A DNA stretch of 64,000 nt. Origin: Mobula hypostoma. Taxonomy: Eukaryota. Where the stretch lies: positions 76,138,001 to 76,202,000 of the forward strand of contig NC_086108.1 of NCBI RefSeq assembly GCF_963921235.1, read 5' to 3'. Below the pieces are notes generated by a model. The model saw only the letters and a list, made by a program, of their open reading frames with translations, was not told the origin of the DNA and did no database searches. Of this stretch, positions 140 to 48,189 are shown piece by piece. Within the stretch, counting starts at the first letter, position 1. The number at the start of each line of letters is the position of its first letter. Made by a program: the position numbers and the translations under genes.

Positions 140-1150
140 GTAGGGTGGTACAGCAGCGTTGCGGTTGGTTAGTGCATCACTTTACAGCACCAGTGATTAC
201 TTATCGGGGTTCTATTCTCATTGTTTTATACACTTTCCCTGAGATGCGTAGGTTTCCTCTAGGTGCTCTGGTTTCCTCCCACATTCCAAAGACGTACTTG
301 TAGAGTTATTGAGTTGTTGCCATTCTGTGTTCGAGCCGAAAGTGTGCAACACTTGCCTAGCATAATCTTTGCTGATGTCAAATCAAATTGAATTAAGTTT
401 AATTATCCTTCAACCATACAAAAATATAGCCGAATGTAACAGAATTCCAAGACCCTGAGTGATATGTCCCACAGTTAATGGTACAGTCTCTTGATAATGT
501 ACAGACACATGCAATCCAGCCTGTCATCCACCGATTGAACACAAAAGGGCAGCATCAACGGGAGAGACCAGCTCCAAGCCAAGTATGGCTGCCACACTGC
601 ACTGTCTCCAGCGTCTCCTCTCCTGGTCAGCAGCATGCAAGCCCGCAACTTGAGGCCTAGTCCTCACTACAACCAGGCTGCCGGCTTCTATGTCATCAGT
701 CGCACCACCAGACAAGGGTAACAGACCTGCGGCAGCTTACATTGTCAATGTCCAAAGAGTCTTGCAATCCCAGGTGAAATGTCAGAGACAAAATCACCCA
801 CTGTTATACTGCATGCTGCTTTTGCAGATCAACTCCATTGCCTTAGAGTAGCAAGAAGCAACACTGTCTGCAGCCAGGTCAACTCCTTCCCCGACATCCT
901 GGTCAGCCCCTTCGACAATAGTCCAGCTACTCCGATCAACAAACAGCTCACTGATGGCATAGCCCTGCAGTACCCAAAGTTCTTGCAGTAGAATTGTCTT
1001 GTGATCATAAAAAAAGCACCTTTGGTTGGCCCCCAAGAGGCTGCTGTATGCAAGCGCCACCATCTTAACAAATAAGACCTGATTTGATTTGACACAAAAC
1101 AATACATTTCATTGGATGTTGCACTGTACATGTGACAAAGTTCATCTTTA
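140..1150 (+). mobile_element. V-SINE (HE1-like) copy, split by an insertion at ~376-1080
   Basis: V-domain core GGTTTCCTCTAGGTGCTCTGGTTTCCTCCCACATTCCAAAGACG at ~251-294. The tail resumes at ~1080-1150 and matches the tail of the 12340-12645 copy. Confidence 0.7.
376..1070 (-). mobile_element. Non-coding, non-autonomous retroposon-like element
   Basis: On the - strand it starts with AAGATGGTGGCG and ends in ATAATTAAAC plus an (ATTTG)n-like tail. It interrupts a SINE. Confidence 0.5.
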
Positions 1151-1589
1151 AAAAAAATCATCACTGCAGTTTTATAATTAAAAGATGAAATAAATTATTC
1201 TGAGTTCTGCTTAGTGAGCTACCTTAAACAGGAACAGAAATGGTTAGTTATCTCAGACTTGTAGAGTGCACAACCTGTGCAAGGCAGAAACTCCAGGCAG
1301 TTTCCTATGCCTTAGATAATCTTATTTGCTGGGCATGTCGTCAGTTGGAAAAGCTCAGGTTTGGGTTTTGTTCTTTGAGCAATAGATGGTCTATAGATGG
1401 TGCTTTGTAGATAGCAAAATTCAAGAGGTGGTCACCTCACAGCTCAAGAAAGTTGTTAAATGAGTGAATTATGTCTATTCAAAATGTTTTCTCATTTATC
1501 TCCTAGTACCAGATAATAGATTGACATTGAAGAAGAGTTGGGGCAGGGTGTAACACCATGCTATGCAGTGGCAAGGAGCAATAAATATT

Positions 1590-1690
1590 CTGCCCTGAAG
1601 AAGGGTCTCGGCTCAAAACGTCGACTGTTTATTCATTTCCATAGGTGCTGTCTGATCTGCTGAGTTCCTCCAGCATTTTGTGTGTGTTGC
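1590..1690 (+). mobile_element. Penelope-like terminal-repeat fragment with degenerate hammerhead motif
   Basis: CTGAAGA-AGGGTCTCGGCTC-AAAA-CGTC-GACTG. Flanked by GCAATAAATATT at 1578-1589 and 1689-1700. Confidence 0.75.
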
Positions 1691-1745
1691 AATAAATATT
1701 TGCTCTTTAGTATCAGCATTCTGTGGAGGATTATACCGTTGCTAT

Positions 1746-1857
1746 AATACATAATACATAATTGTAATACATAATACAATTATGTATTATGTATTAATAG
1801 CATAATACATGCTATTATGTTCTTTTTCTGAACATAATAGCATGTTCAGAAAAAGAA
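1746..1857. repeat. Cluster of three perfect short palindromes
   Basis: Arm pairs 1746-1766/1775-1795, 1807-1822/1830-1845 and 1820-1835/1842-1857. Confidence 0.9.
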
Positions 1858-2274
1858 GAAAACCAGATAAATCATCAATCAAGGCATTGAATTTGGAGAT
1901 GGCAGAGTAATTTGTAGGCCAGATGAACTTGTGACGTTCTTGTCTCAAACATGTGGGGATTGGTATCTAAATTGGCAGAGCTGTCCCACAGATGAATTAA
2001 GCAAAAGCCTGTCATTGTCTGTAAGGTACGATATTGCAACACAACTAGGTGTCAGACTCCTCCTTTACAATCCCTCAAAACTGCAATATAGGACCACATT
2101 AAGAACACAATGAACAGGAGAAGTAGCCAATCAACTCTTTGTGCCCGCTCAGCCATTCAGGATTGTGCCTGAGGCAGTCTGATCTCAGGCAAACTGATCT
2201 CAATACCATTCTCTTTCCTCATAGCACTTCACTCCTTTGTTGCTCAAGTGTCTGCCACTCGCAACCTTGAATGT

Positions 2275-2660
2275 AAAATCAAAGTTTATTGCCAAATGCA
2301 CAAGTACAGATGCAATGAAAATCTTGTAGCTTTATCATTAGCACATGACATCATCGTACAACCAGCATTCGCAAGTAAAACATAAATTACACTTTTTTTT
2401 TACAAGATAGAACATAGAACAACAAAAAAGTCAATTTTTGTGCAAAGTAATCCAAGTAATTATAGTTTTGTTAAACTGTACTGATTAGATTTGTGCCGAT
2501 TGTTTAAGGATAGTAGCTGTTCTTGAATCAACCAGCACATACCTAGTCACTACAGTTTACCAACCAGTAGTGAGGGACTTCATGCTTCCTACTCAATGGT
2601 AGCTGTGAGAAGATAGCATGACTTGGATGGTGGAGATCTTTGAATGGTGCTTTCTTGAGT
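2275..2660 (-). mobile_element. Degenerate Rex1/Babar-type LINE 3' remnant
   Basis: Resembles the 3' ends at 26200-26545 and 56110-56600 (tail, AATAAA on -, then ORF-end-like sequence). Confidence 0.45.
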
Positions 2661-2937
2661 ATAGTGATTCTACCAACATCCCTCTTTGTCTTGGTGCAAC
2701 TTAATGCCCTCCAGTGCTACGTATCACCAGAAGTAAAAACTTACAATGTGCCAATCCCCCCTCAGAATTATGTTTCCATAATTAACTGTCATTTTTCTAA
2801 ACATGGCTCAACCTGCTCAATTTCTCTTTATACTATAACCATTTCATCCTAGAAATCCAGAGAAGCTTCCTCTGCACTTATACCAATAGAGTACTGTACT
2901 GTCCTTAAATTTGGAAACAAAACTGTAATCTGTACTC

Positions 2938-3120
2938 AAACACGAGGAAATCTGCAGATGCTGGAATTTCAAGCAACACACATAAAAGTTGCTGGTGAAA
3001 GCAGCGGGCCAGGCAGCATCTCTAGGAAGAGGTATAGTGGGCTTCCTAGATTTTACTAGAACTTCCTAGAGATGCTGCCTGGCCTGCTGCGTTCACCAGC
3101 AACTTTTATGCGTGTTGCTT
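2938..3120. mobile_element. Penelope-like inverted terminal-repeat pair
   Basis: ~59-bp inverted arms 2971-3029/3062-3120 with an extra ~33-nt tail on the left arm. Flanked by TGTAATCTGTACTC (2924-2937) and TGTAATCAGTACTC (3120-3133). Confidence 0.8.
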
Positions 3121-3216
3121 GTAATCAGTACTCCAGGGCTTTCATTAGTTCCCTTTTTAAAAAAAAATAAATCCCTACTTTTTTATTTCATTATGTTTGC
3201 AAAAAAAAGGGAAATA

Positions 3217-3717
3217 GAGGTTTCCCCACTATCCGAAGCGTTCCTGTGAAACCGTTGGTAAGCGGAAATGGCGTAACGCAAAGAAGCAATTGCCATGAAT
3301 TTATATGGAAAAAATTTTTGAGTGTTCCCAGACCCAAAAAATAACATACCAAAAAGCACATAAAACCTAAAATAACACTAACATATAGTAAAAGCAGGAA
3401 TGATATGATAAATACACAGCCTTATATAAAGTAGAAATAATGTATGTACAGTGTAGTTTCACTTAACAGAATCAGGAAGATTTAGCCAAAACTGACTTGT
3501 AGAAAAAAATCGGCACGTACACGCATGCACACACACTTGCCCGCACAAGGCTTCACGGTCATGGTAGTCTTTCTCGGGGTAAACACAAATTTAAAGTGGG
3601 CGCCTTTTCTCATAAAAGCGAAAATCCTCTTTCGGTTAGCGAAAACAGGTACTAATGTAGGTCTTCCGTAAAAGCAAAGTGCCTTAAAGCGAACGTTTGT
3701 CGGGGGGGGGGCACCTG
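3217..3717 (-). mobile_element. Tigger/pogo-type MITE (~500 bp)
   Basis: TA-flanked, with ends matching the reverse complement of the 5985-7423 element (GAGGTTTCCCCACTATCCGAAG ... GGGGCACCTG). Confidence 0.8.
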
Positions 3718-4139
3718 TATTTATTTAGCCTTCCTGATTCCTTGCTGTAGCTGCATGCCAGCACAATGCATTGTGATCCCCTGATACTTTATACAGCAGG
3801 ATTTTGTTATCTTCATTTAAATATTTTCTGTTCTTTCTAAAGTGGATCACCTCGTCCTTTCCCACAATATGTTTTGCCTGTCAATCTTTCGTTATGCTAT
3901 CTCTTTACTGTTGCAGCTCCTTGTTTTATTAACAATTTGGTAACTCATCTAATTGTGCAACTTCAGCAAATTTGGCTACAGTACACGCAGTTCCTTCATT
4001 TAAGTTAATAAGATGACAAATTGTTGAGATCTGGCATTGATCCCTGCACCCCACTTTTGATCTGAAAATTACCCATTCATCCTGACTTTCTTTCGCTGTT
4101 AAGCTTCTCCCCCTCTAACCTTGTGATTGAAGCAATGTC

Positions 4140-4610
4140 ATTATGATTCAGGGGTGCAAAGGGACTTGAGAACACTTGTGCAGGATTCCCTAAAATTGAA
4201 TGTGCAGTTTGAGTTGGTGATAAAGAAGGCAAATTGAATGTTAACATTAATTTCAGGAGGACTAGAATTTGAAAACATGGATGTAATGCTGATGCTTTAT
4301 AAGGCATTGTTCAGACCTTTATAAGGCATTGTTCAGACCTTACTTGGAATAGTTTCGGCAGTTTTGGGTCCCTATCTGTGGGAAAAAAATATATTGCCAA
4401 TGGAGAAGATCCAGAGGAGGTTCTCAAGAATTATTCTGGAAATGGAAGGGTTAAGGTATGAGGAATATTTGATGGCTCTGGGGCCTGTACTTGCTAGAGT
4501 TTAGTAGGCGGGGGGGGGGAACGATGGTGGAGGGAATCTCATAGAGTGGATGTGGAGAGGATGTTTCCTATAGTTGGGTTATCGAGGGCACAGCCTCAGA
4601 TTGAAGGGAT
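4140..4610 (+). mobile_element. CR1 LINE 3' ORF2 remnant
   Basis: Degenerate KKAN..L..I.RG.E / LYKALxRP.LE / QRRF-type coding. Contains a 22-bp tandem duplication at 4295-4338. Confidence 0.7.
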
Positions 4611-4829
4611 GGCAGCTCACATTTGTTAGCAAAGTGATGGAAGGTTCTGCCAACCATGTTACTAAGTTTACCCAGCAGTAACTTGATGCCTAATTTGAGT
4701 TTTGCTAAGAGGCCTGTGCTTCAGACTTCTTGCCTCCTTGCTCTGAACCTGGAACAAAAGAACTGAACTCTGGGGTGAATAAGAATAACTACAGTTGACA
4801 TCAAGTTGGTAGTTAACTGATTGTGGGTA

Positions 4830-5570
4830 GCATTCAGGTTCATTTACTTATCACATGTACATCAAACCATACAGTGAAATGCGTAATTTGTGTTAACAAT
4901 CAACACATCCTAAAGGTTTTGCTTGGGGCGGCTTGCAAGTGTCACCACACACTCTGGCACCAACATAGCACGCCCACAATGTTCAGTCACAACAACAACA
5001 GAACAACAGCAAAGCAAGCCTCCTTTCTCCCTCCCACCCACTTGCCTATCCATTCACACACACAGACAGGTCTCCAACCCAAGGACAGGATGCCATTGTA
5101 TCTCCCAACATCCAGTCCCTGGCCTGGACTCTCAGACTCGCAGTCATTGGGCCTCTAGCTTCCAAACCCACTGACGCAGGGGCTTTGATTATTGTGCCGC
5201 AGCTTCTGGATTTGCTGAATTCATTCTTCTACCTTCGGGTTTCAGCCTTCGATATTGATCCCAGGATTTGCTGTCACAGAATTTTGAACTCCTGGCCTTA
5301 AACTCTGGACTTTCACGAGCTTCTGACTTTGGAACTTGCTGATCTGGGGGTCATCCCTGGCCCAAACTCATAAACTTGCAGATCTCAGGCCTCTAACTTC
5401 TGGACATGCCAATATTGGGCCTCAACTTCTGTCTTTGACCTTTAAGCTTCAACCCTCTGTTAACTCCAGGACTTGCTGATCACGGGACTCTGAACTCTGG
5501 ACTCATGTAGACCTCCAACCCAGGAATGTGCCTACCAGGTGGTGTCACTGGCCCTCATGCCTCTAATGGT
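4830..5570 (-). repeat. SINE-type tail (4830-4980) joined to a degenerate tandem-repeat body
   Basis: 4840-4980 is the reverse complement of the V-SINE tail at 12510-12640. 5150-5560 has recurring CCAGGA(C/T)TTGCTG and AACTCTGGAC motifs. Confidence 0.5.
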
Positions 5571-5984
5571 TAGGATCACTCCACTTACAAAGGTAGACGA
5601 TTGTTGTTGCAAGACATCAATCACCCTTGTCCCACCGTACTACTGCAGGAGTTCCTGAAGACTTGAGACCTAACGTCCTCCCTCACCTCCACCAGCTCAT
5701 TTATCAATAACCGTCCTTCCGTAAGTCCAGAAGTAAGGTTGCTTAGTTGGGAATGTTTACTGATATATGTACATTATTTATTTTCTTGCAGCACTTCAGC
5801 AAATGAACCAGTTCATTCCTGAATGCAGCAAGGTTTAGTCATCATATGGATATGGACTGATAGGTGTCAAGTAACGTTTGCACTGTATTTGATACTATTA
5901 CCATTGTGAAGCTCCCCCCACCCCCAACCCACTATGATCACATCACAGGCAACTGGAAATTCAAATGGATCAACATCGTAAATA

Positions 5985-7423
5985 CGTGTTCCCCGCTTTT
6001 CGAACGTTCGCTTTACGAAACCTCGCTGTTACGAAAGACCTACATTAGTTATCTGTTTTCGCTAACAAAGTGTTTTCACTGTTTTGAAAAAAGGCAGCGC
6101 ACGCCCCGAACAGCCAAGCTCCTCCCCTGGAACTGCATTCTAGCCAGCATTGCTTAAACATGTGCCTGTGAGTAGCCATTAGCAAGATGAGTTCTAAGGT
6201 ATCAGAAAAACCTAAAAGAGCTTGTAAGGGTGTTACACTTAGTGTAAAACTACTCATAATTAAGTGTTTCGATCGTGGTGAACCAAGTAAGGACAAAGTG
6301 AGTTTGGCTTGTGGAAGTTGACGAAGATGATGTTGAAGAGGTTTTGGCATCCCATGACCAAGAACTGATAGATGAAGAGCTGATGCAATTGGAAGAGGAA
6401 AGGATAACAATCGAAAACTGATGCAGTAGTGAACGGACCAAAAGTGAAGTCGTCCAGGAACTGAACATGAAGCAACTGTGTGAGATTTTCGCTGCAATTG
6501 ACAACAATGATTGCAGAAAAGTACGACTTTAATTTTGAAAGGGTACGTAGCTTTAGGGTATATTTGCAGGATGGTTTGAGTGCTTACAAAGAACTATGTG
6601 ATAGAAAAATGTGCGAGGCTAAGCAGTCAAGCATACTGTCGTTTTTCAAGCCTTCCACAGCAGACGACAAACCTCGACCTTCGACATCGAGGCAGGCAGA
6701 CATAGAAGAAGATGACTTGCCTGCCCTGATGGAAACAGACAACGATGAGATGATACCCCTGTGTCCCACCACCCCAACCCCCGGGCCGCGGACCAATACA
6801 TTGCCGCGGAGAATGCAGCGGTAGCCGGGATGCACCCAGCACATCTTTAAGAAAAAAGCCGAAATAAACAAGCTAATTAATTAGGTGCCGCCCGGCATGT
6901 AAATGTTGGCCCAGATCAGAGGCGATTGCCGATTATGTAACACACCATCATCACTCAGCCTAACACACCATCATCAGTGTGCTCGACGCTGTCTTCCCAA
7001 TTCCAGTAAGCGATACTACACAGTGCATACATTATTTCTACTTTATATAGACACTGTATTTTTATGCGTTATTTGGTATGACTTGGTAGCTTCATAGCTT
7101 AAAGGTTACTGGAGAGAGTGTTTCTGCCGAGAGCGCTTGCGCGAGATTTTCACTACAGAGGAGAGCGGTAATGATTGTAGAAAAGTATTTCTACTTTATA
7201 TAGGCTGTGTACTTATCATATCATTCCTGCTTTTACTATATGTTACTGTTATTTTAGGTTTTATGTGTTATTTGGCTTGATTTGGTAGGTTATTTTCGGG
7301 TCTGCGAACGCTCACAAATTTTTCCCATATAAATAAATGGCAATTGCCTCTTTGCTTTACAACATTCCGGCTTATGAACCGTTTCATACGAACACTCTAC
7401 CTTCGGATGGTGGGGGAAACCTG
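5985..7423 (+). mobile_element. Internally deleted Tigger/pogo DNA transposon
   Basis: TA flanks at 5983-5984 and 7424-7425, with imperfect TIRs. CENP-B-like N-terminal remnant (MSSKVSEKPKRACKGVTLSVK, from ~6187) fused to a Tigger-like C-terminus (DDVEEVLASHDQEL; AKQSSILSFFKP). No DDD domain. Confidence 0.8.
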
Positions 7424-7519
7424 TATAAGAGCAAGTCGGAAGCCAGATAATCCTGCAGTGAGAGACTCTCAATGAAGCATTTCTGCTCTCTCTAAGTCAC
7501 AAATCAGAAAAGTGATGAA

Positions 7520-7960
7520 TAATAATTCTTGCCTGGATGAGTTAGATTTCAAGAAGTTTAACATCATCCAAGACAAAGTAATCTGATCTCATTATCCTAA
7601 ATGTTTATTCCCTCAATCACTATCAGAAAATGTCTGCTGTATATTGCCTACAGAATGTTACATGGTCTAACAATGCCTTACAAACCTATGACCGCTACCA
7701 ACAAGGATCAGGGTGGAAGGTACAACATGCAGGTTTCTTTCTAAGTTGAATGGTTTGGAAATGTATCTTAATTTCTTCATTATTACCTTCATTATTACCA
7801 TTATTTTTAAACTCTCACCTTAGCGGTACCATAGTGATACTTTCACCAGAAAGTTTGTAGCAGTTCAAGAAGGTGGCTCACGGACAGTTTGGCATGAGCA
7901 ATAAATGCTAGCTTTGCCATTGATGTCCGGATTGTGAAAAATGAATTAAATAAAAATAAG
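7520..7960 (+). mobile_element. Old LINE 3' remnant (clade uncertain, Crack/Daphne-like)
   Basis: LAWMS..FKKFNIIQDK-like coding and a 3' end (TTCAAGAAGGTGGCTCA...AATAAATGCTAGC) similar to 37660-37790. Confidence 0.4.
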
Positions 7961-9669
7961 TTGCAAATGTAACTTGTATAGTGGCCACAAGATGGTGATA
8001 CATATTCAGCTGTTCCCCTCATGAAGCATTTGAAAGAATTTCATCCACTTGGTTTGGTTTGTTGTGCATTTATGATTTTCAGTCTGGCAGTTTTTGCAAT
8101 AATTTATTACGGACTCTCTGTGGTGAGATTATGAGATGTTGGTCCAGAACTTGCGGCAAGTGGTAAATCGTTTGTGCTCATTGCTGACCACCAGACAGAA
8201 TTAAAATTTGTTGTATGTAATTTCTCCAGTAGAAATTTCAGTTCAGAAATTCTTTAAGTTTCCATTCTCTTGGGGAAATCAATGATGCCGCCTTTGAAAG
8301 GTAAATTACTGGCTGCAACAAAATCTGCCAACATTAAGGCTGGCAGCTTTAAGCATTTAGTCAGGACTGTTGTCAGTCAGTGATAACTAGAACTTCATTC
8401 CTGAATAGCAGTGCTAATACGGTATATTGTATCGGGGGCACATTGGACCCCCATTGTGTTTCCAGAACTCCATTTCATTGATATCCATTCCTCTCTAAGG
8501 AGTATTCTCTGTAGCAGGATGCTAGTGAGAATTCATGGAAATACAGAGTTAAAGCTTAGTTGAAAACATCAAATTACTTGCAGAAACTGCTAATATTTGG
8601 GTTCTTGTGGAAACCCATGTTACTCATAAGTCCCTACAAAATTCAGGACACTTTTTCAGATGCTTGTACTTTTTTTTGCGCTTTATAATAAAACTATGAT
8701 AAAATGATGATGATAAAACTATTAAATTGGTTAAACATGTTTCACTTAATAAATCTCTGTTTGTTTGTCTTGATCCAATTTCCTTCTGTTGACTGCTGCT
8801 GCTATCACTCACCTATCAGTGTTTCTAAAGCTTCCATGCCACCGAGGTTAATCCAACTGACCTGTAGCAGCTAGGCTTATTCTTCCTTCCTTTTTGGAAC
8901 AAGGGAATAATATTTACTACTTTTCACTCCTTCAACACCTTGGTCCCTACCCCTTGCATTCATAAAACATTGGACGATTATGGTCTGTACCCCTGTAAAT
9001 CCTCCAATACTTAGCTCAAAATCCTAGGATCTTACTTGAAATTCAACTTACTTTCCTAATACTTCCAGGCTATAAATTTTTATTGTATCCAATCTGTCAG
9101 TTATCACCTCCTTGGAAAGGTACATATTCAGTACCTTTACAATAATTGCAGCAATTGTCCCATTTTTTTTGCTCTTAATAGGCATCACTCCTCCAAGTGC
9201 CACCATTTGCTTTGTACATGCTAATTGAACACCTGATTCCTAATCTCCCCTCATTCACTCTCTTTGTTCCTTAATTTTAATTTTGGCTTCTTGTCATTTG
9301 TAATCAGCAAGTACTTACAGCCCTGCATTTACCAAATGTGGCCTTTTTTTTTTGCTTTACCATTCTCTGTATCTTCAGTCATCCAGGGAGCTCTGGGTTT
9401 GTTTGTTCTCCACATGCAAACAATGCTTTAGTCTCTGTCTTTCTTTCTCTCCGTACCCCCTTCCCATATTGTAAAATTCTTTGAACAATGGTTCTACTAC
9501 CCCTTTATATATTTTTTCAACACATTGGATCCATGGGTACTTTATAATCAGCCTTGTCCTATTTTGAACCAAATTTCTGTTGTTGCAGCTTTCTATATAT
9601 GGCTATCTGTTTGCAGAATTCATTAGTCTTATTCCCTACACTGCTCATATTCACATACATGCAGAGTAA

Positions 9670-10720
9670 GGCTACGTCCACACTACGCCGGATAATTTTG
9701 AAAAGGCCGGTTTCGAGTAAAAACGACAGGCGTCCACACTAAGCGTTTTTCAAAATATCTCTGTCCACATTAGACGGATATTTGGGCGAATCTCCTCCTA
9801 CTGGGCATGCGCAGGACACACAGAAAACAAGCGCAGAGGAAACGGTATACTTGGTGCGCGTTTGTCCAGTTACAGAGTAGAAAAACTTAAAAGGAATTGC
9901 TGTTGGCTCTCGCACAGGAGGACTTAAATCTAAGAAAAAAACAAATACTGAAACGTATGGAGGCAACCGACAGGGAATTCACGGACAGTATGACCCGGCT
10001 GACAACGGACATTGAAAAACTGACTAACTCTGTTGCATTAATAAAGCACCTTGTTAAGTGTATGAAACATGACTGCATCAGTGTTATCTTGTATTTCCAT
10101 ACAATGTTACATTAGGCTGTTACACATCTATTGTCAGAGAATTACTTGCATAAATAGGTAAACCATCTTGGTTCTTGATCCTCCAAAATATGCCGCATGG
10201 AATTTAAACTGGAGGTGGCGGAGTGTGTTTTCTGTCCTTACCTTCATACAAGCAAGGACAGAAAACAGGGCAAAGTGCATATACTTATTTATTCAGTAAG
10301 CTATGGGCCGAAGTATTTGGTGAGTACATTTCTAACTCTTCTGGCTTCAGTCTCGTTGTCGTCTGTTCTGAAATTGTTAGGTTCTGCGAAACGCAAAATC
10401 AAATATCGCTGTGATGATTGTACGCTCTAAACAATAAATTAGTAATAATAATAAGGATAAGAATAATAAGAAGAAAACAATGAAATGCCGCGCTGTCGCC
10501 ATTTGTTCCAGCACGTCATGACAGCGGTTTTAAAAAGCTCTAGTTACCCCATACACACCGCAACGGATATTAGGTGTTTTCAGATTTATTCACTCTGGAG
10601 ACAGTTTCTGAAAATCTCCATTTTCGGGGGCTAAAAACGCCGGTTCAGTGTGGACGAAGGCTCAAAACGAAGAGAAAAAGCTTCGTTTTCAAAATTATCT
10701 GACATAGTGTGGACATAGCC
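9670..10720 (+). mobile_element. PIF/Harbinger non-autonomous element
   Basis: 35-bp TIRs GGCTA(C/T)GTCCACACTA...ATAATTTTGAAAA, 3-bp flanks TAA/TGA, subterminal repeats of GTCCACA. CpG-rich relative to the flanks. Confidence 0.85.
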
Positions 10721-10812
10721 TGAGAGTAGTTTAGTTGTTATCTCATTTCCATTTTCACTGACACTGGTAAGAATCCTTGGGTAGACCTTAATGTAGTGTG
10801 AACTGTTTTCTG

Positions 10813-12013: not shown

Positions 12014-12172
12014 ACCGTTCAGGTGCCTGTATACTCAGAGCAAGAATATCAGATGTATCTACATGATGATGGATGGACGAAAGCAGAAACAGACCATCTA
12101 TTTGACCTCTGCAAACGTTTTGATCTCCGTTTCATTGTCATCCACGACCGCTATGACCACCAGCAGTTCAGG
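12014..12172 (+). CDS. DMAP1: DMAP1 coding exon, SANT/Myb-like domain: TVQVPVYSEQEY...HDRYDHQQFR
   Basis: tag|ACC acceptor, AGG|gtgagt donor, 159 nt, phase 0. Contains WTKAETDHLFDL. Confidence 0.97.
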
Positions 12173-12645: not shown

Positions 12646-13399
12646 AAAAATCACCATAAACTGACCAATGGTTACCTAGACAACAGTCATGGAATAAACA
12701 TACGAGGAGTGATTGATAAGTTCATGGCCAAAGGTAGAAGGAGTCAATGTTAGAAAACCTCGCACATTTATTTTTCAACATAGTCCCCTCCTACATGTAC
12801 ACACTTAGTCCAGCAGTCGTGGAGTATATGGATGTCTTCTTTGTAGAAGTGGTCCACAGCAGGGGTGATTGATAAGTTTGTGGCCTAAGATAGAAGGCAG
12901 TGAGTTATTAACTTCAAACTTTATGCATTATCACTCGAAGAGTTGAACCGCACGTGCATGTAACAAGAGCGTCTTGGACCTCCAGATGGTCCACAGCAGG
13001 GGTGATTGATAAGTTCGTGGCCTGAGGTGGAAGGAGATGAGTTATACAGCTCTCGTTACATGCACGTGCAGTTCAACTCTTTGAGTGATAATGCAGAAAG
13101 TTTGAAGTTAATAACTCATCTCCTTCTACCTTGGGTCACAAACATCAATCACCCCTGCTGTGGACCACTTTCTGGAGGTCCAAGACACCGACTTCTACAG
13201 AGAAGGGATCTGTATGCTCCATGACCGCTGGGCTAAGTGTGTAAATGTAGGAAAAATAAATGTGCTGGGTTTTCTAAAATTGACTCCTGCCTTAGAACAT
13301 AGAACATAGAATAGTACAGCACAGTACAGGCTCTTCGGCCCACAATGTTGTGCCAACCCTTAAACCTTGCCTCCCATATAAGCCCCCACCTTAAATTCC

Positions 13400-16200
13400 T
13401 CCATATACCTGTCTAGTAGTCTCTTAAACTTCACTAGTGTATCTGCCTCCACCACTGACTCAGGCAGTGCATTCCACGCACCAATCACTCTCTGAGTAAA
13501 AAACCTTCCTCAAATATCCCCCTTGAAGTTCCCACCCCTTACCTTAAAGCTATGTCCTCTTGTATTGAGCCATGGTGCCCTGGGGAAGAGGCGCTGGCTA
13601 TCCACTCTATCTATTCCTCTTATTATCTTGTACACCTCTATCATGTCTCCTCTCATCCTCCTCCTCTCCAAAGAGTAAAGCCCTAGCTCCCTTAATCTCT
13701 GGACATAATGCATACCCTCTAAACCAGGCAGCATCCTGGTAGTTCTCCTCTGTACCCTTTCCAATGCTTCCACATCCTTCCTATAGTGAGGCGACCAGAA
13801 CTGGACACAGTACTCCAAGTGTGGCCTAACCAGAGTTTTATAGAGCTGCATCGTTAAACTCGCGACTCTTAAACTCTATCCCTCGACTTATGAAAGCTAA
13901 CACCCCATAAGCTTTCTTAACTACCCTATCCACCTGTGAGGCAACTTTCAGGGATCTGTGGACATGTACCCCCCAGATCCCTCTGCTCCTCCACACTACC
14001 AAGTATTCTGCCATTTACTTTGTACTCTGCCTTGGAGTTTGTCCTTCCAAAGTGTACCACCTCACACTTCTCCGGGTTGAACTCCATCTGCCACTTCTCA
14101 GCCCACTTCTGCATCCTATCAATGTCTCTCTGCAATCTTTGACAATCCTCTACAGTATCTACAACACCACCAACCTTTGTGTCGTCTGCAAACTTGCCAA
14201 CCCACCCTTCTACCCCAACATCCAGGTCGTTAATAAAAATCACGAAAAGTAGAGGTCCCAGAACAGATCCTTGTGGGACACCACTAGTCACAATCCTCCA
14301 ATCTGAATGTACTCTCTCCACCATGACCCCCTGCCTTCTGCAGGCAAGCCAATTCTGAATCCACCTGGCCAAACTTCCCTGGATCCCATGCCTTCTGACT
14401 TTCTGAATAAGCCTACTGTGTGGAACCTTGTCAAATGCCTTACTAAAATCGATGTAGCTCACATCCACTACACTACCCTCATCTATATGCCTGGTCACCT
14501 CCTCAAAGAACTTTATCAGGCTTGTTAGACACGATCTGCCCTTCACAAAGCCATGCTGACTGTCCCTGATCAGACCATGATTCTCTAAATGCCCAGAGAT
14601 CCTATCTCTAAGAATCTTTTCCAACAGCTTTCCCACCACAGACGTAAGGCTCACTGGTCCATAATTACCCGGACTATCCCTACTATCTTTTTTAAACAAG
14701 GGAACAACATTTGCCTCCCTCCGATCCTCCGGTACCATTCCCGTGGACAACGAGGACATAAAGATCCTAGCCAGAGGCTCAGCAATCTCCTCCCTCGCCT
14801 CGTGGAGCAGCCTGGGGAATATTCCGTCAGGCCCTGGGGACTTATCCGTCCTAATGTATTTTAACAACTCCAACACCTCCTCTCCCTTAATATCAACATG
14901 CTCCAGAACATCAACCTCACTCGCATTGTCCTCACCATCATCAAGTTCCCTCTCATTGGTGAATACCGAAGAGAAGTATTCATTGAGGACCTCGCTCACT
15001 TCCACAGCCTCCAGGCGCATCTTCCCACCTTTATCTCTAATCGGTCCTACCTTCACTCCTGTCATCCTTTTTTTCTTCACATAATTGAAGAATGCCTTGG
15101 GGTTTTCCTGTACCCTACTCGCCAAGGCCTTCTCATGCCCCATTTTCACTCTTCTCAGCCCCTTCTTCAGCTCCTTTCTTGCTTTCCTATAATCCTCAAT
15201 AGACCCAACTGATCCTTGCTTCCTAAACCTCATGTATGCTGCCTTCTTCCACCTGAGTAGATTTTCCACCTCACTTATCACCCACCCATGGTTCCTTCAC
15301 CCTACCATTCCTTATCTTCCTCACCGGGACAAATTTATCCCTAACATCCAGCAAGAGATCTCTAAACATCGACCACATGTCCATAGTACATTTCCCTGCA
15401 AAAACATCATCCCAATTCACACCTGCAATTTCTAGCCTTATAGCCTCATAATTTGCCCTTCCCCAATTAAAAATTTTCCTGTCCTCTCTGATTCTATCCT
15501 TTTCCATGATAATGCTAAAGGCCAGGGAGCGGTGGTCACTGTCCCCCAGATGCTCACCCACTGGGAAATCTGTGACCTGACCCGGTTCATTACCTAGTAC
15601 TAGATCTAGTATGGCATTCCCCCAGTCAGCCTGTCCACATACTGTGACAGGAATCCGTCCTGGACACACTTAACAAACTCTGCCCCATTTAAACCCTTGG
15701 AACTAATCAGGTGCCAATCAATATTAGGGAAGTTAAAGTCACCCATGATAACAACCCTGTTATTTTTGCACCTTTCCAAAATCTGCCTCCCGATCTGCTC
15801 CTCTGTATCTCTGCTGCTACCAGGGGGCCTATAGAATACCACCAGCAGAGTAACTGCTCCCTTCCTGTTCCTGACTTCCACCCTTACTGACTCAAAAGAG
15901 GATCCTGCTACATTACCCACCCTTTCTGTAGCTGTGGTAGTATCCCTGACCAGTAATGCCACCCCTCCTCCCCTTTTTCTGCCCTCTCTATACCCCTTTA
16001 AAGCACTGAAATCCAGGAATATTGAGAATCCGTTCCTGCCTTGGTGCCAGCCAAGTCTCTGTAATGGCCACTACTTCATAATTCGATGTATGTATCCAAG
16101 CTCTCAGTTCATCACCTTTGTTCCTGATGCTTCTTGCATTGAGGTACACACATTTTAGCCCTTCTACCTTACTGTCTTTACACTGTTTATTCTGCTTCTC
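13400..16200 (-). pseudogene. CR1 ORF2: AP endonuclease plus reverse transcriptase, several frameshifts
   Basis: YLNARSI, ITETWL, GDFNFP, SDH, KSPGPDG, QHGF, DFSKAFD, GVPQGSVLGP, FADD and LVRPHLEY motifs across ORFs 13510-16257. Confidence 0.92.
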
Positions 16201-16292
16201 TTTCCTCAGAGCCTCTCTATATGTTAGATCTGGCTTTACTCCATGCACTTCTTTCACTGCTCTATCGCTCTGGGTCCCATCCCCCTCGCAAA

Positions 16293-17235
16293 TTAGTTTA
16301 AACCCTCCCGAACCATGCTAGCAAACCTACCTGCAAGGATATTGCTCCCCCTTGAGTTCAGGTGCAACCCATCCAATCTGTACAGGTCCCACCTTCCCCA
16401 GAAGAGATCCCAATGATCCAAAAATCTAAAACCCTGCTGCCTGCACTAACTCCTCAGCCATGCATTCAACTGCCATCTCCTTCAATTCTTACCATCACTG
16501 TCATGTAGCACTGGCAGCAATCCTGAGAACGCCACCCTTGAGGTCCTGTTCTTCAGCCTTCTGCCTAGTTCCCGAAACTCACTCTTCCGGACCTCATCCC
16601 TCTTCCTGCCTATGTCGTTGGTCCCAATATGTATCACGACTTCTGGTTGCTTTCCCTCTCGTACCAGGATGTTGTGCACCTGGTCAGAGACATCCTGGAC
16701 CCTGGCACCCAGGAGGCAACAAACCATGCGGGTGCCCTTCTCACATCCACAAAATCTCCTGTCTGCTCCCCTGACTATAGAGTCTCCAATGACGACAGCT
16801 CTCCTCTTCTCCATCCCACCCTTCTGCACCACCGGGTCAGACTCAGTGCCGGAGGCCCTGCCACCGTGGCTCACACCTGGTCGGTCGTCCCTGCCAACAG
16901 TATCCAGGACGGTAAACTTATTATTCAGGGGAATGGCTACAGGGGTGCTCTGTACTACCTGTCTGCTCATCTTCACTTTCCCCCCTCTGACTGTCACCCA
17001 ACGACCTGCTTCCGACAGCCTCGGTGTGACTTACCTCCCTGTAGCTCTCATCTATGACTGCCTCATTCTCCCTTATGAGTCGAAGGTCATCCAGCTGCTG
17101 CTCCAGATTCCTTACATGGTCTTCCAGATCGCGTAGCCGTATGCATTTCTGGCAGATGTGACTCTGCGGGAGATGGGCGTTCCCCCACGACTGCCACATC
17201 TCACATGAGAGGCACATCACCGTCTCAGGAGGCAT
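16293..17235 (-). pseudogene. CR1 ORF1: zinc finger, coiled coil and SGNH esterase, frameshifted
   Basis: MPPETVMCLSCEMW...HICQKC; VVIGDSIVRG; VIHIGTND. Confidence 0.85.
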
Positions 17236-20953: not shown

Positions 20954-21689
20954 AGTCCCAACCTTGTTGGCAATGCAAACCACTGGCAATTACTCATCTA
21001 AGTGGAAACAAGGAAAAAGCATGGGAGACCCAAATTCAACTGAAAGATTTAGATGAGTGCCAACAGATTCATTTATCTTCATTGTTAACCTTCCCTGGCA
21101 TCCAGCTCCTTAAAGGCTCTCTCTTGCTGAGATTTCCACTCTAATACTGCATCAGATTTGATACAAAATCCCACTTTGCATTGGTGATTGTCTGACTGCA
21201 TATTATCTATTTCAGGCTAAGGGTCTTAATTATTTGTGACTTTTATAATTTTTCAAGTTAACTTTTATATTTTATTTAATTTTTAACTATCACATTAAAA
21301 ACATTTAAATCCTTCATAGCTTTAACTACTGTCTAAGTTGGGGATGGTGTTTTGCCATCTCTCAAATCTTTTGTGGACAGTGTTTCCTGTTCCTGAGTAA
21401 TGTTCCCGTGCTCCTCTGCTTTCAGACTAACTGAATGCAGGAACATCAAGAATCTTCATTTCCCTGTACTTTGGGAGTTAGTGCTAAGAAGATTTGAACC
21501 TTTGCTTCCTGGTGGGTGAGAGGGGAGAATGAAGATTCCAATCTTCCCTGCCTTAGGGATTGAGAACTGTCAATCATAGTAGTTATCAGTTTCCAAGAGT
21601 AGATTTTTTTATTGATACGAGTTAACAGTCCACGATGGGTAATATTATCAAAAACATTTCCCCTCCCCTCCCCAAGTAGGCCCTCCCTT

Positions 21690-21905
21690 TGAGCCATGCA
21701 ACTCCCCGACAAACACAATTAACCCTAACCTAATCACGGATCAATTTGCAATGACCAGTTAACCTACCCAATACATCATTTGGACTGTGGGAGGAAACTG
21801 GAGAAAATGCATGCATTCCACGGGAAGGACATGTATAGACTCCTTACAGAACGGCACCAGAATTGAACTTTAAACACCTTGAGCTATTGCACTAACCACT
21901 ACTCT
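21690..21905 (-). mobile_element. V-SINE-like copy
   Basis: TGGACTGTGGGAGGAAACTGGAG is the reverse complement of the V core. Confidence 0.65.
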
Positions 21906-22099
21906 TCAGTTTCTTTTGTATTTCTAAGTAATAATAATAATTCTTTACAAGTTAACTATGGTAATCTAATAATATTATTTTAAAATTTTATACTCCTGTT
22001 ATGTAGCTTCTGGATGATTTGTCATTAATCATACTTATAGTTTGTTTATCCCAAAAAGGTGAACACTTCCTCCTCCACCCTTCTTCGTTTTCCACAAAC

Positions 22100-22850
22100 T
22101 ACTCCCTTTCCCACAACAGTTTGCCATTCAACCATGGAGATGAAATACATGCTTTTTTACCTTGTTCCTTTGATCCATCATTTTAAATGGTTCCTTTTGG
22201 TAAAGTAAAATTTGCTTGTGCTTCTTCCAGTCTAGTGCATTATGTTTGGTTTTCACTGTGTTCACTTTTACGTGGAATAAATCAAATGCTAGTTAGGTGA
22301 CCACTTTACGGAATACTTTTGATCTATCTGTAAGCATGAACTTTAAGCTTCCCATCACGTGCCACTTTAACTCTCCATTAACTCTCACTGTGACTTCTCT
22401 ACGTTTGGCTGCTTATACTGCTTGAGGAATTGCACTTTATCGTGCTTGTTGCAGCCCTTAGGACTTGCTGTTTAACTAAACTCTTGAGAAAGCAGTTCTT
22501 TTTCTTCCTTTCCATACCACAGATGTTATTGTATATTATAGATCAATTTATTCCTTTAATTCTTTTATGTAATAGAGCATTACAGCAGGGATACAGGCCT
22601 AACAAAGGGTCTGCAACTACTTGTATATAAAGTAACAGTTATCTTGATAACTTTGATCTGTACCTTTTCTCAAACATTCCTTGTATTTTTGACATCAGTT
22701 TCCCTTTCTGCAGCATAACTATCCTTGTTTTTTCACATTTCCGGTTCTGATAAATGTTCCTTAATCTGAAATATTAGCTTTATTTTTCACTATAATAGCT
22801 GCCTAAACTGTTGAGTACTCATGGCTTTTTGTACATTTGTTCCGCTTATT
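22100..22850 (+). mobile_element. Old Penelope-like element remnant (GIY-YIG region plus 3' repeat)
   Basis: Degenerate FACASSSLVHYV..., LGDHFTEY and LPITCHFNSP peptides. Decayed hammerhead-like CTGATAA...GAAA at ~22747-22771. Confidence 0.6.
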
Positions 22851-23189
22851 TTATTGTCTCACCACAGCATTCAAAATATCTGATTCATGAGAAGGAAACC
22901 CACAGGAAATCTACAAGTATATACAGTTGAAGTCGGAAGTTTACATACACTTAGGTTGAAGTCAATAAAACTCATTGTTTAACCACTCCACAGATTTCAT
23001 ATTAGCAAACTATAGTTTTGGCAAGACATTGAGGACATCTACTTTGTGCATGACATGAGTGATTTTTTCAACAGTTGTTTACAGACAGATTATTTCACCT
23101 TTAATTGACTATATCACAATTCCAGTGGGCCAGAAGATTACAAACAAAGTCAAAAGAAATCAGCCAAGACCTCAGGGGAAAAAAAAATT

Positions 23190-23792
23190 GTGGATCTTAC
23201 TTTTTGGAGAAATGTTCTCTGGTCTGATGAGACAAAAATTGAACTGTTTGGCCATAGTGACCATCGTTATGTTAGGAGGAAAAAGGGTGAAGCTTGCAAG
23301 CTGAAGAACGCCATCCCAACCGTAAAGCATGGGTGTGGCAGCATCATGTTGTGGGGGTGCTTTGCTGCAGGAGGGACTGGTGCACTTCACAAAATAGATG
23401 GCATCATGAGGAAGGAAAATTATGTGGATATATTGAAGCAACATGTCAAGACATCAGCCAGAAAGTTAAAGCTTGGTCACAAATGGGTCTTCCAGATGGA
23501 CAGTGACCCCAAGCATACCTCCAAAGTTGTGGCAAAATTGCTTAAGGACAACAAAGTCAAGGTATTGGAGTGGCCATCACAAAGCTCTGACCTCAATCCG
23601 ATAGAAAATTTGTTGGCAGAACTGAAAAAGCGTGTGCGAGCAAGGAGGCCTACATACCTGACTCAGTTCCACCAGTTCTGTCTGGAGGAATGGAACAAAA
23701 TTCCAGCAACTTATTGTGAGAAGCTTGTGGAAGACTACCCAAAATATTTGACCCAAGTTAAACAATTTAAAGGCAATGCTACCAAATACTAA
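23190..23792 (+). pseudogene. Tc1/SB transposase catalytic DD34E domain; most of the N-terminal DNA-binding domain is deleted
   Basis: WSDETKIELFG, FQMDSDPKH, DLNPIENL, KGNATKY*. Only a SKEISQDLR...IVDL remnant lies upstream. Confidence 0.92.
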
Positions 23793-23983
23793 CAAAGTAT
23801 ATGTAAACTTCTAACCCAGTGGGAATGTGATGAAAGAAAGAAAAGCTGAAATAAATCATTCTCTCTACTATTATTCTGACATTTCACATTCTTAAAATAA
23901 AGTAGTGATCTTAACTGACCTAAGATGGGGAATGTTTTCTAGGATTAAATGTCAGGAATTGTGAAAAACTGAGTTTAAATGTA

Positions 23984-24093
23984 AACACGAGGAATTCTGC
24001 AGATGCTGGAAATTAAAGCAACACGCATCAAAGTTGCTGGTGAACGCAGCAGTCAAACTTGCTGGCTGCATTTACCAGCAACTTTGATGTGTG
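23984..24093. mobile_element. Penelope-like inverted pair nested in the right IR of the Tc1 element
   Basis: Same arms as 2938-3120. Flanked by TGAGTTTAAATGTA (23970-23983) and TGAGTTTAAATATA (24092-24105). Confidence 0.85.
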
Positions 24094-25006
24094 AGTTTAA
24101 ATATATTTGGCTAAGGTGTAAACTTATGACTTCAACTGTAATTCTTGCTTTTGCATTGCTCACTTGCCAATGCAATGTGAATATTTCCCGGGAAAGTTTC
24201 TCCTGGAAGTAAGAATGTTGCTACTTCAGACAAGGACCTTCACGCTCTCCAAGCCCTCACTCTGTTAGCAAGAAGTCCTGCATAGAAGGACCCTTTCCAC
24301 ATTCTTCCTGGTATTTTTTATACCTAAAGTAGTGGCCACCAAATTCCAAATCTAACAGCTCCAGGTTTTGTCTAAAACTTACTTGTAATGTTACCATTGG
24401 CGTAAGCTCAAATTCCAATATTATCCTCACTCCATACAGCAGCACATATTGTGTACCTAATTTTCCTTCTAGACCGTCATTCAGTAATTGGTCTTCTCAT
24501 TAAATTGTGTATTTCAGATGCCAGATAACCTCCCATCATCCAACCAATTTGGCAGCATTGATTTCAAATGAATGTTACATGAATGCAATAATTTGAATAA
24601 AAAAGATTGCTGTAAGAACTCAGTAAGTCAAGAAGGCAAAGGGCGTAGGTCAGAGTTTCATAGCAAGACCTTGCATAGTCCTGAATCATCAATTTGCACC
24701 TTTTGCATCCATGGGTTCTGCTTGACCTACTGAGTTCTTCCTGCATTGTTCCTGTTTTGTAGATTTCAGCATCTACCATCTCTTTCATCTTCAACACAAC
24801 TTGGATGACTGTTTTGGAAGTGTATTGTGTGGTCCTCTTTTTCTAAATACAGTGGATAACATATGCCCAAATACATATGTATATATTGTACATGAAACTT
24901 TAAAACAAATTGGCACCTTTAATACTCAACCAACAGTTACTGCAATGCTTCTTTTTTTGGCCATTCAATCCTGTGGTATGGAAGGAGGCTATTTGGCCCA
25001 TTGTTT

Positions 25007-25702
25007 CATAGAAACATAGAAAATAGGTACAGGAGTAGGCCATTCGGCCCTTCGAGCCTGCACCGCCATTTATTATGATCATGGCTGATCATCCAACTCA
25101 GAACCCCGCCCCAGCCTTCCCTCCATACCCCCTGACCCCCGTAGCCACAAGGGCCATATCTAACTCCCTCTTAAATATAGCCAATGAACTGGCCTCAACT
25201 GTTTCCTGTGGCAGAGAATTCCACAGATTCACCACTCTCTGTGTGAAGAAGTTTTTCCTAATCTCGGTCCTAAAAGGCTTCCCCTCTATCCTCAAACTGT
25301 GGCCCCTCGTTCTGGACTTCCCCAACATCGGAAACAATCTTCCTGCATCTAGCCTGTCCAATCCTTTTAGGATCTTATACGTTTCAATCAGATCCCCCCC
25401 CCAATCTTCTAAATTCCAACGAGTACAAGCCCAGTTCATCCAGTCTTTCTTCATATGAAAGTCCTGCCATCCCAGGAATCAATCTGGTGAACCTTCTTTG
25501 TACTCCCTCTATGGCAAGGATGTCTTTCCTCAGATTAGGGAACCAAAACTGCACACAATACTCCAGGTGTGGTCTCACCAAGGCCTTGTACAACTGCAGT
25601 AGTACCTCCCTGCTCCTGTACTCGAATCCTCTTGCTATAAATGCCAGCATACCATTCGCCTTTTTCACCGCCTGCTGTACCTGCATGCCCACTTTCAATG
25701 AC
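25007..25702 (-). mobile_element. 5'-truncated, young-looking CR1 LINE
   Basis: KKANGMLAFIARG, LYKALVRPHLEYCVQFW, RTRGHSL, FFTQRVVNLWNSLP and a (TTTCTATG)n tail. Confidence 0.93.
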
Positions 25703-26199
25703 TAATTTCTGTGTCTAATTTTCGGAAATGTTGTTCAATTAGCCCCACTCTCCAGCTCTTTCCCCACAACCTTGCAAATTTATTGTTTTCAAGTTTTTTT
25801 TTACATTGCTTTTGGGAATTTAAAAAAATATTCTGCTCAACCAAATTTTGGGCAATGTACATGGATGGGTTCTTTTGCAGGTACTTATTTGTGTCCATTG
25901 GCTATTGATCCTACTTGTGGAAACTTTCCCTGGAGGCATTCCATGATAACCATTCATAAGTTTTGAACATCTCCACTAAATCTTTCCATAACTTTTGCTT
26001 TAATAGGACTAAAGCTAGCATTTTTTGACCTTCAGCATAATTGATATTACTCACTCTGGTGTATTTCAGTAAGTTTGATCTGCTTCCATCATACCTTTGC
26101 TCCAATGTTGTGCCTGGTATTAGGCACAAGGTAGAGGCTTAACCAGTGACATAAAGATGTAGGTTAACTTATTTGCTTTTGCACTCATAGCCAAGATGA

Positions 26200-26545
26200 A
26201 GTCAGAATCAGGTTAATATCGCTGGCATATATTGTAAAAATTTCTTGTTATGTGGCATTGGTACATTGCAATACATAAAAACTGTAAATTACAGTTAAAT
26301 AAGTAGTGGAAAAAACAGAATAAAATAATGAGGTAGTGTTTATGGGTTCAGTGTCCATTCAGAAATTTGATTGCAGAAGGGCAGAAGCTATTCTTAAATC
26401 ATTGAGTGTGTGCTTTCAGGCTCATGTACCTTCTCCCTGATGGTAGCAATGAGAAGAGGGCATGTCCTGGATGCTGGGGAGGCTTGTGCCCGTGATGGGG
26501 CTGACTGAGTTCACAACTTTCTGCAGCCTTTTTTGATCCCGTGCA
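26200..26545 (-). mobile_element. Rex1/Babar LINE 3' fragment
   Basis: Reverse strand gives HPGHALFSLLPSGRRY-like coding and a (CTGATT)n-like tail. Confidence 0.6.
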
Positions 26546-27095
26546 GACACACATTTCTTAGAGGCCCTGTTATTATTATGTGGTTAGTAAACACTAATGA
26601 CAGTTGGTTAGATAGACAGACAACAGATTAAATTTTAGAGCCACATTGTTCTCACTGAGCCACAGTACTTGATATAGGGCCAAACTTATGACCAGTTTTG
26701 ACTGTGTATTGTAGAAAATTATTTCACCTAGTGGGTCATATTGACAATGGCACAGATCCCTATTAATCTAGGGTGGAGTCACCAGATCAGAAAATATGTT
26801 AAGATCACTGAGAATTGCCATTTATACTCCATAAAAGCACCACACAGATCTGAGAGGATACGTTTAAATATATATTCAATCCTAAAGAAAACAGTCAGTC
26901 CCATATGTTAATGACCAGGGTTCCAGGTCCATGTATGATCCATGAAATAGATTCATCTTGTTTTCTGCTCTGTCAATTGCTGGTAACATTAATTTCTGGG
27001 CTACTGAGGCACAGCCTGTAAAAAGTATTTCATACATTTTGGCACACGCTTGATTGTCAGGTTATTTATTAAATCCCTAACCTCTTTTTTTATAG

Positions 27096-27263
27096 AAACG
27101 TTCAGTGGAAGATCTGAAAGAGCGATATTATAGCATTTGTGCAAAGTTAACAAAGATCCGAGCCCCACCTGGTTCTGATCCTAAGCTTTCTGTTTTTGAT
27201 GCTGGACATGAGAGACGGAGAAAAGAGCAGCTTGAGAGATTGTACAACAGAACACCAGAGCAG
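27096..27263 (+). CDS. DMAP1: DMAP1 coding exon: KRSVEDLKERYY...LYNRTPEQ
   Basis: Polypyrimidine tract plus tag|AAA, CAG|gtaaag, 168 nt in frame. Confidence 0.97.
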
Positions 27264-27354
27264 GTAAAGATTTCTGCTCTGCATATGTATAATAAAAGGT
27301 GAAACTTTGTTTTGCAGTTGAGATGAAAAAGAAATAAAATACTTAAAATGTGTG

Positions 27355-27430
27355 GAGACACGAGAGACTGAAGATGTTGGACAAATGGACAGTGACATTT
27401 TGGGTCAAGTCCCTTCATCTGGACTGTGAA
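27355..27430 (-). mobile_element. Short Penelope-like fragment with decayed hammerhead motif
   Basis: Reverse complement reads CAGTC-CAGATGA-AGGGACTTGACCC-AAAA-TGTC-ACTG. Confidence 0.6.
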
Positions 27431-32856: not shown

Positions 32857-33043
32857 CACAAATAAGAGAAAACTTGCAGATGCTGGAAATCCAAGCAACA
32901 CACACAAGATGCTGGAGGAACTCTGCAGGCCAGGCAGCATCTATGGAAAAGAGTACAGTCGACGTTTTGGGCCAAAGTGTTGACTGTACTCCTTATGATA
33001 GATGCTGCCTGGCCTGCTGAGTTCCTCCAGCGTTTTGTGTGTT
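32857..33043. mobile_element. Penelope-like inverted pair
   Basis: Arms ~32900-32970 and ~32973-33043 meet inside the hammerhead segment (CAGTCGACGTTTTGGGCCAAAGTGTTGACTG). Confidence 0.8.
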
Positions 33044-45199: not shown

Positions 45200-45553
45200 C
45201 ACAAAAAATGCTAGTGAATGCAGCAGGCCAGGCAGCATCTATAGGAAGAGGAACAGTTGACATTTCGGGCCGAGACCCTTTGTCAGGACGAACTGAAAGA
45301 AGAGATACCAAGAGATGTGAAAGTGGGAGGGGGGAGGGGGAGATCCGAAATGGTAGGAGAAGACAGGAGGGGAGGGGTGGATCTAAGAGCTGGAGAAGGG
45401 AGAGGATCATGGGACGGGAAGCCTGGGGAGAAAGAAGGGGGAGGGTGGAGAGCAGGCAACGAGTTGTAGTGAGAGGGACAGAGGGAGAAAAGAGAGAGAG
45501 AGAGAAAAAAAGGGGGGGAATTAATTTCCAGCATCTGCAGATTTCCTCGTGTA
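45200..45553 (-). mobile_element. Penelope-like terminal repeat (-) with inverted tail piece
   Basis: Hammerhead-like motif on - at ~45254-45290 (GTC-CTGACAA-AGGGTCTCGGCCC-GAAA-TGTC). Exact 10-bp flanks ATACATACGA (45190-45199, 45554-45563). Confidence 0.85.
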
Positions 45554-47896: not shown

Positions 47897-48189
47897 ATCT
47901 AAACCCAATGCCCACAGAAGAGATAGTGCACATGTTCAACGAACTTCGCAGTGATCTGGTGCTGTTGTATGAACTCAAGCAGGCATATGCCAATTGTGAA
48001 TATGAGCTTCAGATGCTACGACATCGATATGAGGCCCTGGCAAAAACAGGGCCAACTAACCTGTCGTCAGAAGGTTTTGGCATAGATGGGCAGATAGGAA
48101 CTGTGGGACCCAGTTCTGAAGAAATGAAAGGGGAGGGAAAAGATCAGTTCATTGATGTTGTTGGAGCTGCACCTCTTACACCGAACTCG
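47897..48189 (+). CDS. DMAP1: DMAP1 coding exon: (D)LNPMPTEEIVHMFNELRSDLVLLYELKQ...PLTPNS
   Basis: cag|AT completes the phase-1 codon, TCG|gtaagc, 293 nt. Confidence 0.97.

Follow-up and report, generated by a model that had tools for sequence, protein, structure and literature searches.

How did a transposon resembling the Sleeping Beauty (SB) elements of salmonid fishes come to lie in the genome of what looks like a cartilaginous fish, by descent with its host or by arrival from elsewhere? In the window, i.e., the whole 64-kb stretch of DNA analysed, an SB-type element occupies positions 22924-24138 on the plus strand and is bounded by TA on each side, the left TA duplication (22922-22923) ending a TATATA run (22918-22923, plus strand) and the right one lying at 24139-24140 (plus strand). 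Between the terminal arms (22922-22945 and 24117-24140), 22 of 24 nucleotides are paired, the next-best match to the arm sequence elsewhere in the window reaches only 18/24, and the 64 kb hold no further SB copy. The element thus combines the target-site duplication of TA with the terminal inverted repeats of Tc1/DD34E transposons. TA targeting is documented for SB in the accessible text of PMC3952818, and a preference of SB and ZB elements for AT-repeat targets in that of PMC9777934.

The reference for all comparisons was a complete element of 1,639 bp with a 340-aa open reading frame (ORF), carried by a metagenome contig (L001) among the 43 loci returned by a metagenome scan. It is called salmonid-type here on account of its protein, which shares 98.5% identity with P0003, from a cluster that includes Oncorhynchus and Hucho proteins; a second locus (L005) differs from it at 7 of 1,097 shared positions. 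On its contig, the L001 element (1613-3251) abuts a second Tc1 element (223-1224, minus strand; 36% identical), with which it apparently shares the junction TA, possibly through an assembly join of high-copy families. In SB elements, the inverted repeats (IRs) are long (~230 bp) and contain two direct repeats (DRs) apiece, one outer and one inner, in the so-called IR/DR layout, and the window element fits this layout on comparison with L001. Its left IR/DR (22924-23146, plus strand; 88.9% identical to L001 over 225 bp) has an outer DR from 22924 and a degenerate inner DR (~23116-23146, with a 12/17 core match at ~23133) that is clipped by a deletion. Its right IR/DR (23793-24138, plus strand) is interrupted by an insertion, before which it is 93.2% identical to L001 over 191 bp, in line with the close likeness of the non-coding right IR claimed by the sequence-only reading; the right inner DR, from 23795, matches the core at 16 of 17 positions, and the outer right DR, ending at 24138, shows a 4-bp loss and two substitutions.

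The host had been assumed to be a cartilaginous fish, with the reservation that a teleost host would undo any case for transfer, and its DMAP1 gene bears the assumption out. The element lies within a DMAP1 intron, between exons at 12017-12172 (plus strand; 52/52 to five chondrichthyan DMAP1 proteins) and 27096-27263 (plus strand; 56/56 to Hypanus sabinus). The host is placed by a variable exon (47899-48189, plus strand), which matches Hypanus at 97/97 residues, skates at 92/97, sharks at 87-90/97, the chimaera at 85/97, the coelacanth at 70 and teleosts at 66-67/97 (66/97 for five of the teleosts compared). Across seven DMAP1 exons, 346/346 residues agree with Hypanus sabinus, the eighth exon being skipped in the Hypanus isoform; the chondrichthyan DMAP1 cluster was represented by the 15 listed of its 26 members, none of which is a mobulid, so that the placement covers stingrays and devil rays alike. 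Judged by these protein matches, the host is a batoid ray close to Hypanus. The same intron also contains a near-complete LINE (13510-17030, minus strand) with reverse transcriptase, endonuclease and an esterase-like ORF1, for which Pfam returned RVT_1, Exo_endo_phos and a weak GDSL match.

Within the element, an open frame of 227 codons (23109-23792) carries the catalytic triad of D153, D244 and E279 at 23226, 23499 and 23604 (numbering as in the accessible text of PMC4820933), with 34 residues between D244 and E279 as in DD34E transposases. The catalytic-domain remnant (23193-23792, plus strand) corresponds to SB codons 142-340 with the stop, as delimited by the frame, the alignment with L001, a Pfam match to DDE_3 (E=2e-15) and the sole PDB match of the window transposase, SB100X (5CR4, E=6e-113). 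The IR/DR structure, the TA duplication and the open DD34E domain of ~200 aa announced by the sequence-only reading are all present, and that reading was right about the element and its open domain; what it missed is that the copy is dead, along with the internal deletions, the lack of an ATG ahead of D153 and the host-repeat insertion in the right IR. Relative to L001, a first deletion of 170 bp (junction 23146-23147, plus strand) takes the end of the inner left DR, the 5' untranslated region and the start codon, and a second, of 370 bp (at 23193-23197, plus strand), takes codons ~18-141, i.e., the DNA-binding half. What lies between is a remnant of codons ~3-18 (23147-23197, plus strand; 10/10 to residues 3-12 by tblastn), frameshifted by four extra bases in a G/A run that appear as a blastn gap. 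No in-frame ATG precedes D153 in the window copy, and the Pfam domains HTH_SB and HTH_Tnp_Tc3_2, present in L001, are absent from it, so that it has neither the intact 340-aa ORF nor the N-terminal paired-like DNA-binding domain of an autonomous SB element.

The catalytic region differs from L001 at 23 of 199 residues (88.4% aa identity), close to the one residue in nine that had been estimated by eye. Of these changes, 17 are not of the type found in Prochilodus and strike highly conserved sites, the near-invariant positions changed including W169, G189, N245, W257, P273 and W282. Read from its letters, the window copy is a dead, non-autonomous element that makes no functional transposase. 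Its ends could at best be mobilised in trans, and of these the right one has a damaged outer DR. One could imagine selection acting on the open 200-codon frame, either as a catalytic domain that has been domesticated or as an exon linked to DMAP1, given its 227 open codons, its intact DDE triad and a dN/dS of ~0.5 against L001. We consider this very improbable. The frame has no ATG ahead of D153 and has lost its DNA-binding domain, it carries private changes at near-invariant residues, and with just 38 substitutions relative to L001 an open frame is unremarkable. Moreover, the DMAP1 exons on either side carry on the normal protein, and a dN/dS below 1 fits selection on active lineages before insertion. 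The window copy is a dead fossil within an intron, and nothing points to a function for it.

The insertion that interrupts the right IR measures 108 bp (23984-24091, no strand assigned), folds back on itself (hairpin z=-5.1) and derives from an abundant host repeat, with relatives at seven or more further sites in the window, among them ~2938, 3125, 19016, 32875, 45552, 48948 and 58371. The insertion is absent from L001 and L005 and is flanked by a 14-bp target duplication (23970-23983 and 24092-24105, plus strand) that is single-copy in L001. The same repeat family forms long fold-back arrangements at 2938-3125, 19016 and 32875-33042, and further ones at 45521-45552, 48948-49382 and 58334-58371. 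Rfam at gathering scores gave no match in the window, the insert repeat included, and this family may resemble Penelope-like terminal repeats.

This nested host repeat bears on whether the element belongs to the ray genome at all. SB elements are abundant in fishes and in vectors and appear in metagenome assemblies, and the ray assembly might have had a teleost fragment or an SB vector from the laboratory joined into it. Against such contamination or chimerism, which we regard as very unlikely, stand the insertion with its 14-bp target duplication and the 81 differences and two deletions that separate the copy from L001. A vector origin would further conflict with the missing SB100X changes, since the copy retains RKEN214-217 and M243 as does natural, pre-engineering SB. 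A plasmid collection gave no match.

Further evidence of residence came from four of the 24 listed sequencing runs (X21, X3, X4, and X10), compared over positions 21200-27400. X21 is a run from the host, which may be the source sample and hence is not independent. It showed no differences from the unique flanks in the listed pieces, and one of its contigs crosses the right junction (24028-25034) with 0 differences, which also speaks against contamination; at the left junction, the overlap is only ~25 bases. Summed X21 depth over the element (four bins over 22856-23683 and the next) was 14,000-180,000, compared with 14-59 over the unique flanks, and, although contig depth does not equate to copy number, this points to a large SB family in the ray. 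The other three runs, salmonid-type by their letters only, cover the element and leave the flanks, the LINE pieces and the DMAP1 exon bare, such holes being uninformative.

The letters of these runs distinguish the ray family from the salmonid type. Among the 40 variant sites listed out of 169, picked by support, 11 are sites at which X21 copies share the letter of the window copy and X3, X4, X10, L001 and L005 carry the alternative, 10 of them nearly fixed in X21 and one at ~82%; the remaining 29 are private to the window copy. Hence, the ray has its own SB subfamily and the element is not stray teleost DNA, a further point against contamination. Scaled from these sites, the ray family would lie ~2% (1.2-3.1%) from L001 and the window copy ~5% (4.2-6.1%) from its own family, both estimates being rough because the listed sites were picked by support. 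X21 depth varies along the element: listed sites in the left IR and N-terminal remnant show ~1,000-8,000, most of those in the catalytic region and right IR show 35,000-190,000, and depth is far more even in X3, X4 and X10. Many ray copies may be without the left end, or may have a different one, contig depth being an unreliable measure that gives only a hint of this.

The window copy differs from L001 at 81 of 1,107 aligned bases (7.3%), and ungapped alignment gives 93.6% identity over 791 bp, with 93.7% for the catalytic domain. The non-coding part differs at 41 of 465 positions (91% identical), and over 199 codons dS is 0.105 and dN is 0.056. For salmonid copies that have a name but are decayed, identity to the window copy is no higher than 82-85%. 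The best 120 of the 4,949 transposase hits all stood at 88% identity or below, and neither a chondrichthyan name nor an intact ORF of the ray family was among them, most hits being unnamed.

Likeness is nevertheless not membership. As in SB100X (5CR4) and the salmonid type, the window copy has the D153/D244/E279 triad, IR/DR ends and a TA duplication; it is unlike them in lying in a chondrichthyan, in its 11 family-fixed letters and six Prochilodus-type residues, in lacking a start codon and DNA-binding domain, and in carrying an insertion. The six residues (143, 230, 303, 312, 313, and 317) are of the Prochilodus and not the salmonid type; because the window copy keeps them, its lineage would have split before the salmonid-specific changes. 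With these residues and the family-fixed sites differing, the copy does not bear the Tss1/SB10 letters diagnostic of the salmonid subfamily. The salmonid likeness claimed by the sequence-only reading stands; by this comparison of sequences, the ray family, which has its own fixed letters, is closely related to the salmonid type and distinct from it. In Prochilodus magdalenae itself, many full-length 340-aa SB-clade proteins were found (P0005, cluster 4), which suggests a recently active natural relative of SB.

Such closeness has to be set against the age of the hosts. Silent sites saturate over a split as deep as that between rays and bony fishes. Ray DMAP1 and that of Chinook salmon or whitefish share 329 of 398 residues (82.7%), and the replacements in the protein by themselves require a difference at 79 or more of 1,188 bases (6.6%), silent changes not counted. 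The remnant of a dead transposase, at 88.4% aa identity, has therefore diverged less than a host protein under constraint, and a nucleotide difference of 7.3%, a dS of 0.105 and 91% identity in non-coding DNA make it implausible that the element shared the history of the DMAP1 split. We consider it very likely that horizontal transfer carried an SB-clade family across between the batoid lineage and ray-finned fishes, either directly or by way of a third carrier; the transfer proposed in the sequence-only reading is upheld by these figures, with a control that is at the protein level and from one gene. The timetree in the accessible text of PMC7070016 dates the ray-bony fish split to 473 My, and the transfers retained there involve hosts separated by more than 120 My and alignments of at least 300 bp and at least 75% identity, to which 791 bp at 93.6% across 473 My corresponds. 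The same text also requires the transposon Ks to fall below 99.5% of orthologue Ks, and finds DNA transposons to be neutral within genomes.

Vertical inheritance from the jawed-vertebrate ancestor, the likeness being kept by slow evolution of cartilaginous fishes, would find some comfort in a shark mutation rate of 7x10^-10 per site per generation (accessible text of PMC10587355), in the 96% identity of ray and chimaera DMAP1 and in an approximately unbiased (AU) test that did not reject the ray lying basal to the SB rows of teleosts (p=0.24). Divergence, however, accumulates along the paths of both lineages, and a slow shark rate slows only one of the two; moreover, 91% identity in the non-coding IRs (41/465) and a dS of 0.105, next to a DMAP1 protein at 82.7%, leave persistence since the common ancestor hardly credible.

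Transfer thus being the preferred reading, its direction was sought in the transposase trees, built with rows that we selected among the hits by coverage and name. The tree of 38 rows places the window copy in the SB clade (99/99), where it joins salmonid, Prochilodus and Coilia elements, as sister to the salmonid type (96/70); in a 12-row tree, the SB clade receives 92/97 and the grouping of the window copy with the salmonid type 65/68. The copy therefore groups with SB-type proteins and, at 93.7% nucleotide identity to L001, exceeds the 80% coding identity that delimits the SB clade in the accessible text of PMC9777934. The AU value cited above was obtained with the ray placed outside all teleost SB rows. 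Passage from a teleost to the ray is the likelier direction, one we favour with moderate confidence for the sole reason that the clade is broad in ray-finned fishes.

Other geometries, namely passage from a ray to teleosts or separate invasions from a parasite, an invertebrate or a virus carrier, are variants within the transfer reading and not rivals to it, and we regard them as possible but doubtful. The six residues shared with Prochilodus, which imply a split before the salmonid-specific changes, and the weak nesting inside teleost elements (96/70 and 65/68) would suit them, as would, in the accessible parts of the sources, an SB-clade element in a mollusc (PMC9777934) and possibly related salmonid-like Tc1 elements in Anisakis with PCR bands from salmon shark (PMC12441823). 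Opposed to them are the 107 ray-finned species in which the 2022 survey recorded the SB clade, with no finding in chondrichthyans in its accessible material (PMC9777934), and the share of vertebrate transfers that involve ray-finned fishes, 93.7% according to the accessible text of PMC7070016. With the teleost-to-ray direction preferred, we propose that an active SB-clade element, near but distinct from the salmonid type, would have entered the batoid germline, and, as the data support, would then have multiplied to high copy with its own fixed letters. As its anatomy shows, and by the mechanism known from SB biology, the window copy was pasted into the TA of an AT-repeat in the DMAP1 intron, with duplication of the TA; it lost 170 and 370 bp, gained the host-repeat insertion and underwent decay at conserved positions.

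Transposons are well known to pass between aquatic vertebrates. Jia et al. (2022; PMC9777934) list, in the material accessible, 107 ray-finned species and one mollusc as hosts of the SB clade and no chondrichthyan, the sole chondrichthyan record being ZB-like; six batoid labels tried in that material were not found, which is weak evidence. The window copy shares long IRs and an AT-repeat target with the elements of that clade and differs from them in its chondrichthyan host. The Tc1 transfers between teleosts and lampreys in the accessible text of PMC3516227 represent the same process, i.e., Tc1/mariner movement across a deep vertebrate split, and the Group 1 elements of lampreys gave no amplification there from cartilaginous fishes. 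The 975 vertebrate transfers of PMC7070016 again represent this process with ray-finned fishes involved; in its accessible list of 307 genomes, Callorhinchus and Rhincodon appear and Leucoraja and Scyliorhinus were not found. The salmon-shark bands of PMC12441823, as far as its accessible text goes, may constitute partial prior art. The word Tc1 is absent from the accessible text of two batoid genome preprints, and the literature searched, a scope that excludes most subscription journals, Dfam and Repbase, contained no report of SB transfer into rays. This probably adds a new host, a cartilaginous fish, to the record of the SB clade, the process and the clade both being known already.

Ray-finned fishes predominate in the transfer records consulted. 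The ray case extends the SB clade, on which a clinical tool for gene delivery is based, over the deepest division among jawed vertebrates. Rays have internal fertilisation, and SB transfer into such animals weakens the idea that transfer needs shed gametes. The expansion of Tc1/mariner elements in batoids, stated but unexplained, also becomes testable: the TcMar share is 3.28% in skates, 2.30% in rays, 0.14% in sharks and 0.03% in the chimaera in the accessible text of PMC12361510, where the families are unsplit and the word "horizontal" is missing from the main text. That an imported SB lineage accounts for a sizeable part of the batoid excess over sharks and chimaeras is speculative, and we think it rather unlikely. 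If true, the batoid Tc1/mariner burst would have come from bony fishes, shared insertions would allow it to be dated, and the SB tool would gain a naturally occurring sister variant whose residues differ at the C-terminal end.

Other elements populate the same window. Inverted repeats of 64 nt lie ~2.3 kb apart at 3651-6049, with a frame nearby (6471-6824); Pfam gave no match for this frame, the middle of which we take to resemble the tails of pogo/Tigger transposases. A 1.05-kb element (9669-10721) has 45-nt inverted ends and no long ORF, its ends resembling those of PIF/Harbinger non-autonomous elements. At 12700-13290, a nested palindromic element contains three pairs of arms of 38-95 nt, and its left end resembles a mariner terminal repeat.
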